From positions 2,976,001 to 3,040,000 of the forward strand of contig OZ287760.1 in assembly GCA_965649765.1 (NCBI GenBank): a stretch of 64,000 bases of DNA, read 5' to 3'. The position numbers were made by a program, and so were the translations under genes. The stretch is from Bispira polyomma (taxonomy: Eukaryota). Position 1 is the first letter of the stretch. Every line of letters begins with the position of its first letter. A model generated the notes under the pieces. It did not search any database. It was not told where the DNA came from and saw nothing but the letters and a program-made list of their open reading frames with translations. Shown here piece after piece: positions 2,426-58,553 of the stretch.

Positions 2426-3725
2426 TGGGAACCAATAAACATATTTATGTACTAATTATACCTACATATGCCACTGTATCAAATGATTAAGATGGATTTC
2501 AATAAAGGTTGTGCACAATAAGATTGAGTCACAGAGTTGTTTCTTTATTTCTTTTTCTAGGTTGTCCATCCTATAATCCATGCCATCCATCTAGACCTAA
2601 GCCACACCCGAATAGAGGTAGGTAAATGGTATAAGTGACACTGAACTTCACAAAATGTGTGTTATTCGCATTGGTTACTAGCCATAGGTTACAGTCTATA
2701 GTTATATAAGGTTTACGAAGGGAAGGTATAACATTTATGAAGGATAGTACATTATGGTCCGTTCGAGGAGATCAGAAAAGTGGAGTAGTTGTTAAAAGTG
2801 TTGTGTATGCAAATGACAGACCTTGTAAAAGTTTACTTTCTGACATATATACATTAGCTAATAAGATAGTGGTTTAGTGTTGGAAGGTGTCAGTCTATCA
2901 AGCTTCTGCAAATAGTTTTATGGAAATGCATATCACTACAGTCTATACCATACATTTAGGTATTATTGAATATTTTGAAGTAACAGTATTTTTTTGACAA
3001 TATGTAATGTGAAAACGAATGACCAGATTTTAAGAAAAATCAACGATATTTTGTAATATCTATTTCTTTTAGCTTGAATATTGAAATATACACTATCTAG
3101 CAATTATTACTGCAAAATTTAAACATTCATATTCAATATTTTATCATATTTCAGTCCAATAAATGTTGTTACATTTGTTTGTATGTTCAAAAATAGTCCA
3201 GACATCATGATTTAACCTTTACACCATCTCTGCATAGTTTTAAATCACATGTATTTTCAGGATGTGGTTGTCATCATCAATATGAGTCATGTGAAAAAAA
3301 AGAACCTGGTTAGTATTGCTTAGAGGTAATTTGTTATGTTTGTATATACTGAACATATATGCTAAAGATGCTAAATATATCATTTCCCCGGTAGCAGGCT
3401 AAAGGATCCGAGGTCATGAAGACAAGGTAAGTAAACACAGAATGCGGTAATTTATTTATTAGACTAAATGTTAGAATCTACTATGTACATGGTGACTTAG
3501 GGTCACCTCAAATAAAGTTAAAACAAGATACTTAAGGTCATCTAAAGTGAAGAATTTGAATTTAGGAATAATAAATAAATTTAGTTAAAGGTCACCTTAT
3601 AATTAATTTAATGTTCGTAATTCCCGAACCAGAAAGAGTTCGAAGGTAAGGTGACCTTAAATCCAATAGAAAAATTTTGACTAGAAATTAATTTTTATGT
3701 AGCTACTGTACTGTAGCAAGACTTG

Positions 3726-5515
3726 ATAAATATGTAAGGGGTATTAGGGGTATCAACTAATACAGTAGAGGGCTGTAATCTAAACATGTAGGTTAATGCC
3801 TGTTGGTGCAATAGTAGGGAAGGCCCAAATATAGTACATTTCCTGTCGTTTGCGTTTCTGTGTACTATTTGGGTCTTCTGTGTGGCCTAGCCATTGCAGT
3901 ACACCAAACTCCATGTCTCTAACAGTATGTTGGTTAGTACTGTAATGTCTGGACACAGGGGTCAGTTTATTCTGACCAGGTTTAGTGACACTTGCTCCAT
4001 GTTCATACATTCTGTTTCTGAGGGGTCTTTTAGTCTCCCCTATGTACTGTAATCCACATTTTTTGCATGTGATTACATAAATGACATTCTTGAGTTCACA
4101 AGTAAGTCTGGGATTAGGTGGAATAGATATGCATTTGAACTGCTTATTGGTGTGGTGGCTGATGATATGATCCACTTTTTTTATGAGTGGACAATAAGTA
4201 CATTTTCCAAGTCTTGTACAAACTGTGGGTATAGTTTTAATAGTTGTACTGTTTACTGGAGGGTAGCAAATCTTAGAACTTGATAATTGGTCCCTAGGGT
4301 TGGTAATCTCCTGTAACCTATTATGGGAGGTTCAGTGAAGATATTGGCAAGGCCATCAGTATTCTGGATGATGTTCCAGTTTTTGTTGATTATTTCCCTG
4401 ATGTTGGGGTTATTTGGGTTATACTGAGTTACCATGACAGGGTTGTCCGTCACTGGTTTGGTGGTTTTTTGTAGGAGTTCATCTTGGGTGAATTGAGATG
4501 CCCTTTTATAATGTTTGGTGAGGTTCTGTTTGGAGTAGCCTCTAGCCAAATAGAACTTAGTGAGATTTTGGGCATTTTGCTCAAAGTCAACGTCTAGGGT
4601 ACAGACCCTTCTGAGACAAAGATATTGTCCATAAGGTCCTTTTGATAGGGTGACCCTTGGGTGGGCTGAGGTGTGATGGAGGTACAGGTGGGTATCTGTA
4701 GGTTTGGTGAATAGTGTTGTGATTAGGTCCCTGTTTGGGCCTAATTTAACAGTTGTGTCTAAGAAATTAATGGTGTGGTGATTGTATTCATGAGTGAATT
4801 TGATGGTTGGGTGGATGGAGTTTAGATACTCAAAAAATTGTATGAGCGAATTTTCTCCATGTGTCCAGATCATGAATATGTCATCAATAAATCTCTTATA
4901 CACAAATGGTTTAAGGGGGTAATTTTTATGGCTTTGGTTTCGAACCTGTCCATAAAAATATTGGCATAATTTGGGGCCAAGGCAGTACCCATTGCTGTGC
5001 CTCCTATTTGGAGGAAGTGGTCTCCATTAAACTCAAAGTTCATACTATGGAGTACTAATTTCAAGAGATCCAAGATGTATTTGGCTATTGGGGACTTGGT
5101 GGGGTCCTTCCTTAATTGGTCTGCTACAGCATTAATACCTTCATTATTTGGTATGTTGGTGTAGAGAGAGGACACATCAAGTGTGACTAGAAGTGATCCT
5201 TCAGGAATTGGGCCTAAGTCCTTTATTTTGTGAATGAAATCTTGGGTGTCTCTGATGTAAGACTTGGTAAGGGGGACATATTTCTTAATATGCTCATCCA
5301 CAAATTTGCTGATTCTGCAAGTAGGGTGGTTTACAGAACTACAAATAAGTCTGCCAGGTGCATTCTTCTTATGAATTTTTGGCAAGAGGTAGAATCTACC
5401 TTCAGTACAGTTTTTTGGTGTCAAGTATTCGAAGTTGTCCTCTGTGATCAACTTTGAGTTCCTTAGCTTGGTCAAGGTTTCAGTAACTTGATCAGAGATT
5501 TTATCTGTTATGTCA
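3726..5515 (-). mobile_element. Penelope-like element (Neptune-type), 5'-truncated RT + GIY-YIG endonuclease, frameshifted
   Basis: RT motifs LDVSSLYTNIP, GTAMGTALAPNYANIFM and RFIDDIF; linker CTRLGKCTYCP; C-terminal GIY-YIG NVIYVITCKKCGLQYIGET..LRNRMYEH (3780-4175). Flanked by GTAGCAAGACTTG at 3713-3725 and 5516-5528. Confidence 0.92.
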
Positions 5516-5869
5516 GTAGCAAGACTTGGCTTACCCAAGTGTTTTAGTTGAAACTACAAAAGTATTTAAAGTTACCTTGAGTATGTAGCTACTGTACTGT
5601 AGCTAAATAATGGGATCATAGCCATTATTTACAGTATAATAAGTTAGACTTCACATAGACTTAATAGAAGAGAAGACAGAAGTCAGTTTAACAAAGTATA
5701 ATTACATAATACTGTTAAGCTTACGCAATAACTTACGTTTTTGCGACAAAGGTAATATGTGAAAGGAGTGATAACTAAAATTACGTAATTGTTTTACATA
5801 ACCATTAATTATTACATAAGAGAGGAGTAGATTTAAAGTACAACCAGCCAAACCCCAATGAAGTAGGAG

Positions 5870-55773: not shown

Positions 55774-55781
55774 TTTACAAG

Positions 55782-56136
55782 TACCCTCTCAGTTAAGCAA
55801 GATTGCCACACAAGCTGCACACAGAACCCACCAGGCTTTCAGACCAGCTACTGAGAGGGCTTATACAAACATGTTTAGGATATTTTTAGCCTTCTGCAGT
55901 TTTGCTCAGGTCAGGCCAGCTTATTACGCCCTCAATTCTCATTTATTCTTGGTCCTTACTTGGTTGTAAGGTGCCACCCTGGCTTTTAATAGTAACGTAC
56001 CAATTCAAGACATACAGAGTCATGTCACCTGGACGTCGGACTGTGTGTGTGGCAGTATATCGTTCAGGACCACAATGCCTCTGAGCAGGTAGCCCTCTCC
56101 TTTAAGGCCCTACTTTCCAAACCCACTACCTCCTAA
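55782..56136 (+). pseudogene. YR-C tyrosine recombinase, core deleted
   Basis: N-terminal HQAFRPATERAYTNMFRIFLAF is joined via a 38-bp filler to C-terminal GATLAF..TWTSDC.WQY. Confidence 0.85.
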
Positions 56137-58553
56137 TTGGGCTTTGGGGCTTTATTTACATACTTTTACATTATTAATATATACTTAAATGTTAAAGATA
56201 AATCTTTTGGGCCACCTTACCACCTTATTTAATCTTAAATTTTTATATATATTTAATACATTTCCTTTGGCAACCTTAAAGCAAACCTAAGGTTACCTCA
56301 TAATAAAAATTCAAATCTAACCCTAACTTTATGTTTGGCTAACCTTAAATTCATGAACTTAAATCTTTCCTCACCTTAACCTGGAAATTCTCAGGCTAAG
56401 GTCACCTTAACTCTCAAAATTTTAAATTTCTCTCATGCTAAGGTGGCCCTAAATTCAGTATGTAAATAAATATTAGCTATAACATAGAAGCATTAAACTA
56501 ATATCCCCAACTCTGCCTTTTTACTTACCTGTGTTACACCATAGCTTAACTTTTCTTGGTAGGGCACTGAACCGGGTAATAATTTTCTCTCATATTTATC
56601 CTACTTTGGTGACGTCATTTGTGTGTGTGACGTCATACAGACTGTTTGAAATGTGGCAATCTTGTACATTTTCAGGTGGTTTTAATATAACTGTGGTAAG
56701 CAAATTAATCTATAAATTTTTAAACATAACTTTTGACAAACATAACATATAAGCATTATGCAGTGTTTATTGCATATGGAACTCCCATTTTTAATCGGTT
56801 GTGAGTCTGTATTTTTCATAAAAAAATCATAATAATATTTTAAGCTAATATGTTTAAGGTGACAAGAGTCAGTGTATGTTTTATTCATACTGAGTAGTTC
56901 ACCGTGAATTGTCAACATATTGGGGATCTTTCCGACTGATTTTTTTTTGTGTAGTGTTTTGACCTATAATTATGAGTATAACAATTATATTTTAAAAGTG
57001 AATATGCTGCTTATTTTAAAATTGAATCACTCGAGACAAGATCCAAGTATACCGTGCCCCGCCCTATGGACTCGGATGCTGTGGCTTGATCTTCCTTGTC
57101 TTGTGTTTACATTTTAAAACGTGCACCACTCAATTTAATTAGGTAATTTTCCTATTGTTTAAAAATGAAATATTATCAGAGAAATGTGGGCCTGATGGAA
57201 AGACTACATAGCTTAAGGGGATTGGTCATTAACCATTGCCAAACGCACAGGTCATGGTTTTCACAAAGGAGGGAATTTTGAGGACTAAAAGTCCAATGCT
57301 ATGTATTTGTTACTATAAATGTACCTATTGCATGTATGTAAAAAGTGGCCTCACCCACTTCGACGATTGGCAACTATATTTATACACAAATGGAGAGAAA
57401 AGAGATAACAAGAGGAGACCCCAATAACATACAGCATAACATAAATGAAGCATGGACTGTTCAATTCAATTGGTTTGTGTGTGTGTGTGTGTAGGGGGTG
57501 GATCAGTTGGCTTTCATCATTTATACATGTGTATAAAATCATATGATAAGCCAACTGGAAGGACACGCATACTCTAAGTGTCCGGCTCTCTCCTACTGAA
57601 GAAATAGTATATGTGATAAAATAATTTGAGAAAAATGCTAACGAAAATTATAAGAATAGAAGTAATTCTAAGAAGAAGATTCTTTGTAAGTATGGCCCAG
57701 AAGGTTCCCGGTTCAATTTGCAGTGGAGGAGGTGATCGAGAGGTTAAAAGCTTGGGCCATATCCACAAAAAGGGATCAACGAAAAATCAGCTCAAGTAGA
57801 GACAAAAATCAGCTCAAATTTTTGAATCAGATCAAATTTTGTATTCACTAAAGAATTTGAGCTGATGTTTCGCTCATCTTTTGGCTTAACCTCTGTCAAA
57901 AAAGGCACAAACCTCATTACAGAATATAATAATTGAAGCATTTATAGAGCACCAAATTAATGGAAAAAATATTTAATCACATAAATCTATGTAACTACTA
58001 AAACTAACAGAATAAAAAAAAAGGAATCAATTTTTTTTTTCTTGTTATTAGATTGATACGGCTGGACGTTCTGGCGTTAACGCTGGCTACGCCCCTGCCG
58101 GAAGATATATACAAATTGTAAACAACAGAATTAACTTGGTTCTGTAAAAGGGGGAAACACCAGAGGCCTGAGTGTTTAATGAGCTGATATACACCGATAT
58201 GTTACACAATAACTCGCTATATAAATACACTTCAATAATAATATTCACACTAACAACGCCCCGCCTAGGCTAATAATATTGTGAAAAAAATTACCACTTT
58301 CTACCAGTAATAATGAATTAATTAAATTAAATTAATTAAATAGTGAAAACAAATTACCAGTTTCTACCAGTAATAATTAAACAACACTAGGTCTCATTTT
58401 TGTTTTTGCAGAATTTGGTTTTCTTTGCGTGTCGACAAGAATGGGCAATTGGCAAAAAATCCCCAATTGAATAAATTAAAGGAATTGCATGAATCACTAT
58501 AAAGGACACATATTCAGGGGGAGGGGGATTTATGTCTCCCTGACTATAGTAAG

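Follow-up and report, generated by a model that had tools for sequence, protein, structure and literature searches.

Three tyrosine-recombinase (YR) retroelement copies, YR-A, YR-B and YR-C, lie in the window analysed here, a 64,000-nucleotide stretch of Bispira polyomma DNA (GCA_965649765.1, contig OZ287760.1, positions 2,976,001-3,040,000 of the forward strand; element coordinates follow the window numbering). They are decayed members of a large Ngaro-type clade in which, judging from sequence conservation, one transcript probably gives Gag, a -1 frameshifted Gag-Pol and a spliced fusion of the Gag N-terminus to the recombinase (GagN-YR). A first-pass annotation had recognized the three copies, whose ends are corrected below, and had proposed these three products, a proposal for which signal conservation in intact relatives, other species and public gene models give strong support.

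The three copies in the window

The features of the three copies are as follows.

3381..10040, minus strand: YR-A, a decayed A-ORFs-B copy without A2-X-B2; ends from alignment to loci L075 and L088-L090 (83-97%)
10040-10003, minus strand: YR-A 5' hairpin and CAG-motif, equivalent to those of YR-B
8810..9823, minus strand: YR-A gag, with a premature stop near its end; N-terminal CxxC..H..C motif, coiled coil, helical core and C-terminal Cys/His fingers, from the sequence and a model of a relative
9376..9385, minus strand: YR-A predicted splice donor, phase 1, exon end at 9382, a site kept in 89 of 90 loci
8784..8819, minus strand: YR-A frameshift site, with heptamer A AAA AAC (8819-8813), gag stop and hairpin
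6920..8813, minus strand: YR-A pol remnant (RT/RNase H), broken and carrying two internal deletions
5870..6891, minus strand: YR-A predicted acceptor (intron end 6874) and broken YR exon
3498..3659, no strand: YR-A palindrome sites in repeat B, at 3498, 3533, 3587 and 3647, with a weaker one at 5567
3713..5528, minus strand: Penelope-like RT and GIY-YIG insertion (3726-5515) within YR-A repeat B, with a 13-nt duplication at 3713-3725 and 5516-5528
40519..46168, plus strand: YR-B, a decayed A-ORFs-B copy; ends from alignment to loci L131, L132 (93-95%) and L139
40519..40556, plus strand: YR-B 5' hairpin and CAG-motif at A positions 31-33, complementary to the last 6-7 nt of B
41121..42238, plus strand: YR-B gag, broken; phase-1 donor after 41625; C AAA AAC at 42226-42232, followed by a hairpin
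44686..45680, plus strand: YR-B predicted acceptor (intron end 44703) and YR exon with an internal stop
45870..45882, no strand: YR-B palindrome, one perfect site in repeat B
52142..56569, plus strand: YR-C, a decayed A-ORFs-B copy; ends from alignment to loci L128-L130 (82-94%)
52142-52180, plus strand: YR-C 5' hairpin and CAG-motif, equivalent to those of YR-B
52652..53664, plus strand: YR-C gag, broken; phase-1 donor after 53070; heptamer 53630-53636, stop, and hairpin 53643-53664
55764..56136, plus strand: YR-C damaged acceptor just past the pol stop (55771-55773) and YR remnant, most of YR being deleted near 55940-55970
56206..56451, no strand: YR-C palindrome sites in repeat B, five at ≤2 mismatches

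As first described, the non-coding DNA of the three copies cannot be aligned; their proteins, said to align at motif level only, share long stretches of approximately 33-57% identity by tblastx. The short 5'/3' complementarity attributed to YR-A and YR-C is present in both, but YR-B has it too. In YR-A, 1.8 kb of the span corresponds to the Penelope-like insertion, which is foreign to the element: its ORFs were considered as cargo and rejected, being missing from all four relatives compared and flanked on both sides by the duplication.

Conserved splice signals and the predicted GagN-YR product

The phase-1 donor previously noticed in gag is found as AG|GTA in all three window copies, and a collection of relatives scored for each signal showed that the expression signals are kept in intact elements. 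Based on loci chosen for open YR or RNase H frames, whose proportions are thus not genome-wide rates, we found the donor A|GGT|A in 89 of 90 loci and in 17/17 distinct contexts, which do not represent 17 independent events because the copies share ancestry; the neighbouring residues vary. In the controls, the Gly codon was GGT in 9/32 cases, and the donor context occurred at one of 150 other Gly codons. In A- and C-type gags, the search pattern admitted only Gly codons with K, T or I as the next residue, which partly preselected the base downstream of the donor GT; the 11 B-type contexts are free of this bias.

The proposed phase-1 acceptor before YR was confirmed in YR-A and YR-B, but that of YR-C is damaged compared with its relatives. 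Across the clade, 109 of 113 loci have a phase-1 YAG located 17-18 codons ahead of the first YR motif and 6-80 nt past the pol stop; this YAG scores best among 6-15 AGs in 23 of the 27 representatives. In structural models, both splice points would fall at domain edges, after a Gag helix (117-136) and before a YR helix (2-18). Splicing at these points would skip the remainder of gag and the whole of pol and leave a product with a predicted length of ~465-500 residues, whose common Gag N-terminus (Cys/His motif, coiled coil and two helices) would carry the recombinase into the Gag particle. The YR has a Cre-like fold (best E 1.5e-6) with the catalytic residues present. The Gag model, by which a CA fold was tested, gave no significant match in the PDB, in BFVD or in a wide search.

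Contigs from three runs over one copy of family F13 include its flanks and the X spacer and are DNA-like, and none of their 14 listed joints coincides with the predicted splice. Among 137 + 150 YR matches, no open frame of the length expected for a spliced retrocopy was found. Similarly, in 40 atypical-frame loci from 150 + 150 GagN matches (frames of 543-1239 aa left out), the YR start never stands behind the donor. One atypical GagN match carries a deletion into the YR C-terminus.

An alternative is that translation of the YR begins at an ATG of its own, either through reinitiation downstream of pol or on a transcript from an internal promoter; the AG/GT motifs would then be by-products. An in-frame ATG at least 12 codons upstream of the YR motif is present in 71 of 113 loci, so some families could also start YR unaided, and the RefSeq isoform XP_032229976.1 has an unspliced-type start. 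The description of YR as ATG-less is thus correct for the window, where no in-frame ATG precedes the first YR helix motif in any copy, but not lineage-wide. As the general source of the enzyme, an own ATG is nevertheless improbable: its position varies from 16 to 38 codons upstream, it is missing in 42/113 loci, in all three window copies and in 11 of 14 loci from other species, and the synonymous positions of the donor are fixed while those of control Gly codons are free.

It is less probable still that the YR extends Gag-Pol into a Gag-Pol-YR protein, whether by read-through or by another -1 frameshift where pol meets YR. A frameshift from RT/RH to YR was proposed for Ngaro by Poulter and Butler (2015), as quoted in PMC13003380, and one family has YR in frame with pol after one stop; the YR is in the -1 frame relative to pol in 12 of 24 representatives, but in frame 0 in 5 and +1 in 7, the gap between the pol stop and YR reaches 783 nt in other species, and the donor and acceptor are left unexplained.

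Relatives in other species and public gene models

The signals of the spliced GagN-YR reading recur in relatives from metagenomes, where the phase-1 acceptor is found in 13 of 14 loci, 6-783 nt past the pol stop, no upstream in-frame ATG at all is present in 11 of these 14, and both of the two gags carry the AG|GTAA donor. Additionally, computer-made gene models join a Gag-like N-terminus to YR at the predicted point in Nematostella (XP_048583323.1, XP_048588725.1 and XP_048582591.1), in the amphioxus Branchiostoma (XP_019639177.1 and others), in the annelid Owenia (CAH1792662.1) and in the scallop Argopecten (XP_069136376.1). The Nematostella N-terminus is that of Gag, as the same 150 residues sit on the Gag core in another isoform (hhalign probability 98.7, E 1.6e-16); the Argopecten N-terminus gave no alignment to the clade Gag profile (probability 0.13). 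An Atlas search with the Nematostella N-terminus returned no usable match, and no relative was found among viral contigs. The best Atlas match for Gag was a Basidiomycota cluster (0.92), which we regard as a lead only.

The expression of a recombinase encoded behind pol in elements of the order DIRS has so far been a guess, namely a frameshift in the review as quoted, which a conserved splice joining half of Gag to YR would replace by a defined, testable junction. A splice-made GagN-YR was not found in the literature searched, a set that lacks two key subscription papers. The predicted working enzyme is ~140-170 residues longer than the usually annotated YR ORF, and assays of the bare ORF may therefore miss its real form. 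The fusion would also account for a group of gene models of 455-540 aa that are annotated as 'uncharacterized' in cnidarians, amphioxus, annelids and molluscs.

Probable frameshifting between gag and pol

The slippery site and hairpin reported at gag/pol are present at the gag stop of all three window copies, with the heptamer A AAA AAC in YR-A and YR-C and C AAA AAC in YR-B, and hairpin z values of -4.6 (YR-A), -1.1 (YR-B) and -5.9 (YR-C). In the 26 intact copies, pol is always in the -1 frame relative to gag, and A AAA AAC stands in the gag frame in 51 of 54 gags. The downstream stems show paired changes between families, with z from -1.7 to -4.5 in 9 representatives. Gag-Pol would thus be produced by -1 ribosomal frameshifting at the heptamer and hairpin.

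Repeat organization, termini and insertion

Intact relatives have the layout A1-gag-pol-YR-B1-A2-X-B2. The first-pass annotation saw no split direct repeats, which is accurate for the window copies, all without A2-X-B2, but not for their relatives: by exact motif, A2 directly follows B1 in 23 of the 72 loci with both ends and was not detected in the other 49. The A1/A2 and B1/B2 pairs are mostly 97-100% alike. Full A1-B1-A2-B2 copies occur in 7 of 8 families examined, including that of YR-A, with five exact B|A junctions, and also among the relatives of YR-C. The X spacer between A2 and B2 is unique, non-coding and 276-906 nt long; a coding role was rejected, its longest ATG ORF being 44-78 aa. 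Solo A-X-B units were found at 2 of 30 F13 loci (located through the X spacer), and tandem (A-X-B)n arrays at one F13 and two F17 places.

Insertion is blunt, without target duplication, and with a weak target preference. Self-comparison of 8 family representatives revealed no ITR or ICR, the terminal pairing being of 6-16 nt only. The CAG-motif in A pairs with the terminal 6-7 nt of B, and B|A adopts an imperfect hairpin fold in which the crossover is located on one arm. An alignment-based fold of 7 junctions gave a covariation term of +0.79, with the CAG-motifs out of register in that alignment; the automatic partner search picked the wrong partner in 3/8 cases.

In the earlier framing, the lineage would form a new superfamily of YR elements, devoid of ITR/ICR and of split direct repeats alike, with ends held together by the short terminal complementarity. 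The pairing of the end of B with the CAG-motif and the 49 loci without a detected A2 speak for this framing, but the full A1-B1-A2-B2 copies in 7/8 families and among YR-C relatives leave it scarcely any probability, and a repeat-less superfamily is refuted for the clade by the split direct repeats of the relatives.

Short copies such as YR-A, YR-B and YR-C are probably dead ends. They likely derive from full elements that lost A2-X-B2, either by recombination between B1 and B2 or by template switching. In a set of 8 near-identical F13 copies, 3 are already without A2-X-B2, a fast loss if post-insertion recombination were the sole route. An origin mainly from YR resolving a full circle into two was rejected, given the solo A-X-B units at just 2/30 loci. 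Transcription may start within A, where Inr-, TATA- or CCAAT-like motifs are found, and end in B, which has a polyA-like signal 60-86 nt before its end. Both ends would then be copied from B1|A2, the internal junction of such a transcript, in line with the published model for split repeats.

Comparison with known systems

The lineage had been placed outside PAT and Ngaro. We assign it to the Ngaro type because its intact relatives have split direct repeats and no methyltransferase, an assignment by structural definition, the YR tree having no named Ngaro, PAT or DIRS1 row. According to published definitions of Ngaro-like elements (order DIRS; PMC9210276, PMC4157794, PMC8547959 and PMC3783388), the shared characters are gag, RT/RNase H without methyltransferase, a downstream YR, the A1-ORFs-B1-A2-B2 arrangement, solo repeats and repeat-less copies. 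In the clade, gag, RT/RH and YR follow in this order on one strand, with the internal repeats downstream of YR; Pfam gives just RT and RNase H-like families in 3/3 pols, with no methyltransferase, and pol ends a median of 34 residues past the last RNase H motif (115 homologues). A YR that begins within the end of RT/RH, in the -1 frame, is given by the quoted review as a typical and not a defining trait; it is not general here, with -1 in just 12/24 representatives. In fungal Ngaro, the YR frame relative to RT-RH is described as variable (PMC3783388). The clade differs from Ngaro in its X spacer between A2 and B2, in the lack of an SGNH hydrolase ORF, in the clade-specific palindrome cluster in B, and in the conserved donor and acceptor with their predicted GagN-YR, where the quoted review proposes an RT/RH frameshift.

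PAT-like elements (PAT, TOC and kangaroo) share the split direct repeats and YR, but PAT encodes a methyltransferase domain (PMC4157794), which the clade lacks. VIPER, from kinetoplastid hosts, is described with YR before RT/RH (PMC6681497), whereas here YR comes after pol. Single-stranded cDNA is reported for DIRS-1 in PMC7192593. DIRS1-like elements share YR and the absence of target duplication; the clade differs in having no ITR/ICR, methyltransferase or long pol/YR overlap.

Retroviruses and LTR retrotransposons use -1 frameshifting at gag/pol and a spliced RNA for a 3' gene. In the clade, by contrast, the predicted spliced product is the integrating enzyme with ~135-175 Gag residues, not Env or Gag alone. 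In plant Ty1/Copia elements, splicing balances Gag and enzymes (PMC5580714). The hairpin fold of B|A and the blunt insertion with its weak target preference are also reminiscent of integron attC sites and other folded single-strand substrates of tyrosine recombinases (PMC2727003); this is a resemblance only, as the B|A fold may equally be an RNA structure.

A wider generalization would be that in all animal Ngaro elements YR is always a spliced Gag fusion that enters the particle through the Cys/His motif and coiled coil, and that it integrates an attC-like single-stranded B|A junction bluntly, nearly anywhere and without target homology. We consider this speculative and, taken whole, rather doubtful; if true, it would represent a eukaryotic, structure-guided and footprint-free integration and a third way to couple an integrase to Gag. 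The integration substrate is open to testing in the young families, where the termini are exact, the empty sites blunt and the junction folded.

Palindromic sites in repeat B

The palindrome array described after YR is above chance in the window, with 17 matches at ≤2 mismatches against 4.9 expected (0/100 shuffles), but YR-B has one good site and no array. Its interpretation as a recombination locus is unsupported as regards a crossover site: the sites number from 1 to 8, with variable spacing, and lie 120-490 nt from the junction. The array could instead be an accessory recombination region with arm-type sites for YR or GagN-YR, which would build the integration complex on the circle. The concentration of sites in repeat B (58 in 7.7 kb, compared with 5 in ~70 kb of element body, in 14 representatives), the adjacency of B to the junction in the circle and the mirror-symmetric substitutions, as in a double-stranded site, are consistent with such a region. 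We regard it as unlikely, considering the variable number, spacing and distance of the sites and their absence from 7 other-species 3' regions (116-700 nt, several of them short), in which YR, the acceptor and the Gag plan are kept. An RNA-duplex role was rejected, as there is no G-U-compatible bias and positions 2 and 10 show no covariation. The palindromes are likely double-stranded sites for a dimeric protein, and an enhancer-type cluster is more likely than a crossover site.

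Sample and the three window copies

The Bispira polyomma genome (1.04 Gb in 75 contigs) was searched for relatives of the three tyrosine-recombinase (YR) retroelement copies of the window, using their YR and RNase H sequences as queries and considering the best 137-150 matches each of 9,500-12,200 candidates. We took 118 loci of ~10 kb for their open frames and then sorted them into families; the proportions below describe this chosen set. Based on alignment to relatives, the ends of the copies were set as follows.

Retroelement copies and insertion in the window
10040..3381, minus strand, YR-A
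40519-46168, plus strand, YR-B
52142-56569, plus strand, YR-C
3713-5528, minus strand, Penelope-like RT/GIY-YIG insertion of 1.8 kb, 5′-truncated, within the 3′ repeat B of YR-A, with a 13-nt duplication

All three copies are decayed: YR-A has two deletions in pol, YR-B contains stops and frameshifts, and YR-C has lost most of its YR and has an acceptor unlike that of its relatives. The target of the Penelope-like insertion is located inside a short unit, tandemly duplicated in the relative L075, and the 3′ end of the insert repeats a motif of this unit.

The first-pass annotation treated the copies as three different families. Their non-coding DNA is indeed unalignable, but their proteins are ~33-57% identical across long stretches. 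Because of this long alignment, and because the 22 YRs from this genome form one group in the YR tree (support 100/98), the three copies are, on sequence grounds, three subclades of one clade.

Termini, split direct repeats and insertion

Young families (mean identities 92.6-98.9%) have sharp ends, with a 5′ hairpin starting with T and a 3′ end of CTG or ATG. A second A repeat lies directly behind B in 23 of the 72 loci with both ends located. The full layout is A1 (160-250 nt), ORFs, B1 (460-750 nt), A2, X and B2, where X is a unique spacer of 276-906 nt whose longest ATG ORF has 44-78 aa. No split direct repeats had been seen in the first-pass annotation, which itself named ordinary split repeats in relatives as evidence against its reading; these B/A junctions are such repeats. 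They occur in the YR-C relatives L125 and L130 and in a family 72-77% identical to YR-B, and the two closest YR-B relatives lack them. For the YR-A family, B/A junctions were found in 0/15 sampled loci, with five exact ones genome-wide, four of these behind a YR.

A search with the X spacer finds mostly full copies, solo A-X-B accounting for 2/30 loci of family F13. Tandem (A-X-B)n arrays of 2, 2 and 7 units were also found.

Tandem A-X-B arrays behind an element, up to 7 units of 1656 nt
G000:C2:3428108-3438534
C10:4729167-4731313
C1:106443408-106445216
L115

We infer that A2-X-B2 is lost when B1 and B2 recombine, either in the genome or in the course of reverse transcription. The tandem gains agree with the reciprocal of this exchange; 3/8 near-identical F13 copies already lack X, which suggests a replication route as well. 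Six insertions into tandem arrays, five of them independent, agree at every base with the empty units next to them, with neither duplication nor deletion. Target preference is weak, position -2 being A or T in 70/72 and position +1 likewise in 60/69.

Inr-, TATA- or CCAAT-like motifs lie within the final 110 nt of A, and a polyA-like hexamer is located 60-86 nt upstream of the B end in 8/8 families, an arrangement that fits an RNA lacking both outer ends. Additionally, X begins with a C-rich motif in 7/7 families (borders in L031, L053, L093, L113, L124, L127 and L141), and B begins in a G/T-rich motif directly past the YR stop, also in loci of other species; both are possibly signals for template jumps.

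In locus L105, two near-identical copies form a large inverted pair with 99.96% identity across 3.2 kb, and a second inverted pair, of gag, is located at G000:C5:23736264-23737532. Among the YR-A family matches listed, 17/47 copies of 82-87% identity lie <3 Mb from a contig end (expected, 8%), and several family members are inside satellite arrays (L073, L076, L078, L079 and L086). The window is 3 Mb from the contig end.

Predicted gag/pol frameshift signal

The pol frame is -1 relative to gag in 26/26 copies with all three frames open. The heptamer A AAA AAC is found in the gag frame within the final nine codons of 51 of the 54 gags, the other three ending just upstream in homopolymer runs. 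It is followed by a stem, 5-9 nt away in most families, that has paired changes between families. These data uphold the slippery site and hairpin proposed at gag/pol as a predicted signal of the retroviral type. Of two gags from other species, L149 carries the heptamer with a 9-bp stem at a distance of 12 nt, and no clear heptamer plus stem was found in L152 and L151. A single open frame fuses gag and pol in L045 and G000:C12:38422134 (1219 and 1239 aa).

Predicted splice donor and acceptor

The gag motif was locatable in 90 of the 118 loci, and A/GGT/A is present at the homologous Gly in 89 of them, although the A- and C-type gag patterns partly preselected the base following the donor. Among 17 distinct donor contexts, the preceding residue is A, K, S, T or G and the following one N, I, S, T or K; nevertheless, in all 17 the third base before is A, Gly is GGT and the next codon begins with A. 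Of the control Gly codons close by, 9/32 are GGT, and the donor context occurs at 1/150 other Gly codons of 8 gags.

A phase-1 YAG is located 17-18 codons upstream of the first YR motif in 109/113 loci (a further 5 loci not located), always 6-80 nt past the pol stop, and ranks first among 6-15 AGs in 23/27 representatives. The YR frame relative to pol is 0 in 5, +1 in 7 and -1 in 12 of 24 representatives. The putative phase-1 donor in gag and phase-1 acceptor before YR of the first-pass annotation are thus recovered in most loci. Its generally ATG-less YR is not, since 71/113 loci have an in-frame upstream ATG, at no fixed position.

The predicted GagN-YR fusion, in which the front half of Gag is joined to YR, skipping the rest of gag and all of pol, would have 464-498 residues in six families. 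In structure models, the donor falls behind Gag helix 117-136, ahead of the conserved core, and the acceptor maps to the first helix of the Cre-like YR. In the 5′ UTRs of L031, L118 and the window (41060-41075), all of them from B- and C-type elements whose leaders are long, a pyrimidine tract and AG lie just upstream of the gag ATG and may mark a leader intron.

Other species and public gene models

A metagenome scan yielded 25 loci, 14 with a locatable YR start. The best acceptor is in phase 1 in 13 of these 14, 6-783 nt past the pol stop, and both metagenome loci with gag have AG/GTAA at the matching position. One metagenome YR served to retrieve RefSeq models; public gene models of this kind usually rest on RNA alignments. 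At three Nematostella loci, isoforms have a 150-residue N-terminus fused to YR at the homologous residue. The same N-terminus occurs in another isoform on a Gag core that matches the clade's Gag profile (probability 98.7), and in a further model on an unrelated exon; in these models, the gag donor is therefore joined to several different acceptors. Against the Gag profile, this N-terminus scores above all 1000 shuffles. In the Nematostella models P0366 and P0365, the same donor is joined to an acceptor within the Gag core, and Gag is shortened internally as a result.

Models from Branchiostoma (482, 503 and 540 aa), Owenia (455 aa) and Argopecten (463 aa) have the join 15-18 residues ahead of the YR motif, with basic or Cys/His starts and coiled coils. 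The Branchiostoma and Owenia N-termini were assessed by eye, and that of Argopecten did not align to the clade's Gag profile. A Mytilus model from the same search, a chimera with an RT piece, was left out of the count.

Relation to Ngaro elements

Ngaro elements are defined by split direct repeats 3′ of YR and no methyltransferase, according to the available text of PMC4157794, PMC9210276, PMC8547959, PMC6681497 and PMC3266345. The present clade shares both features, and by this structural definition the clade of the window elements belongs to the known superfamily. The sole statement found on YR expression is that of Poulter and Butler (2015), as quoted in an excerpt of PMC13003380, who propose that YR is produced via a -1 frameshift from RT/RH. 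The accessible part of PMC3783388 describes YR frames as variable, with no explanation; that of PMC9210276 contains neither 'splic' nor 'frameshift', and those of PMC2632668 and PMC9940879 hold nothing on YR expression. A spliced Gag-YR was not found in the literature searched; prior mention is possible, chiefly of the gag/pol frameshift. The predicted expression plan, with Gag-Pol by frameshift and GagN-YR by splicing, appears to be new to the literature and has good sequence support in several phyla.

Palindromic sites and the B/A junction

Allowing two mismatches, TARGGTNACCYTA occurs at 58 sites in 7.7 kb of B versus 5 in ~70 kb of element body (14 representatives), and shuffled B yields 0.1-0.4 sites. 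The sites vary in number (1-8) and spacing, the nearest being >120 nt from the junction, and their substitutions are mirror-symmetric, with neither G-U bias nor covariation. We read them as a probable cluster of sites where a dimeric protein would bind the double strand. No sites were found in 7 other-species 3′ regions; the cluster is clade-specific and its role uncertain. An enhancer role, to which we give roughly even chances, is likelier than a function as accessory recombination sites, which we consider improbable. One palindrome half may be similar to a nuclear-receptor monomer site, and the G variant to a telomeric repeat.

Folding natural B1/A2 junctions as DNA gave, in 10 of 11, a pairing around the 5′ hairpin between the final 5-7 nt of B and a CAG-motif at A position 31-33; differences between families are matched on the two sides. 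The short 5′/3′ complementarity noticed earlier is this same pairing. Fold z values lie between -0.4 and -3.8 by a crude shuffle, and folding is better for the sense strand. The predicted fold could be a structure of the RNA or a single-strand substrate in folded form, the latter considered because DIRS-1 cDNA is described as single-stranded in the available text of PMC7192593.

Other features of the window

12440-12844, plus strand, multicopper oxidase gene exon (Cu-oxidase_3, E 1e-25)
61876-62355, plus strand, exon with hydrophobic leader and VWA domain start (E 5e-4)
30312-31850, plus strand, LINE-type RT fragment (RVT_1)
16976-17710, plus strand, LINE-type RT fragment
10829-11100, minisatellite, 33 nt
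15268-15539, minisatellite, 36 nt
16499-16758, minisatellite, 51 nt

Both LINE-type fragments have a 3′ repeat in common, which is also present at 18527-18661, 51041-51159 and 63182-63339.
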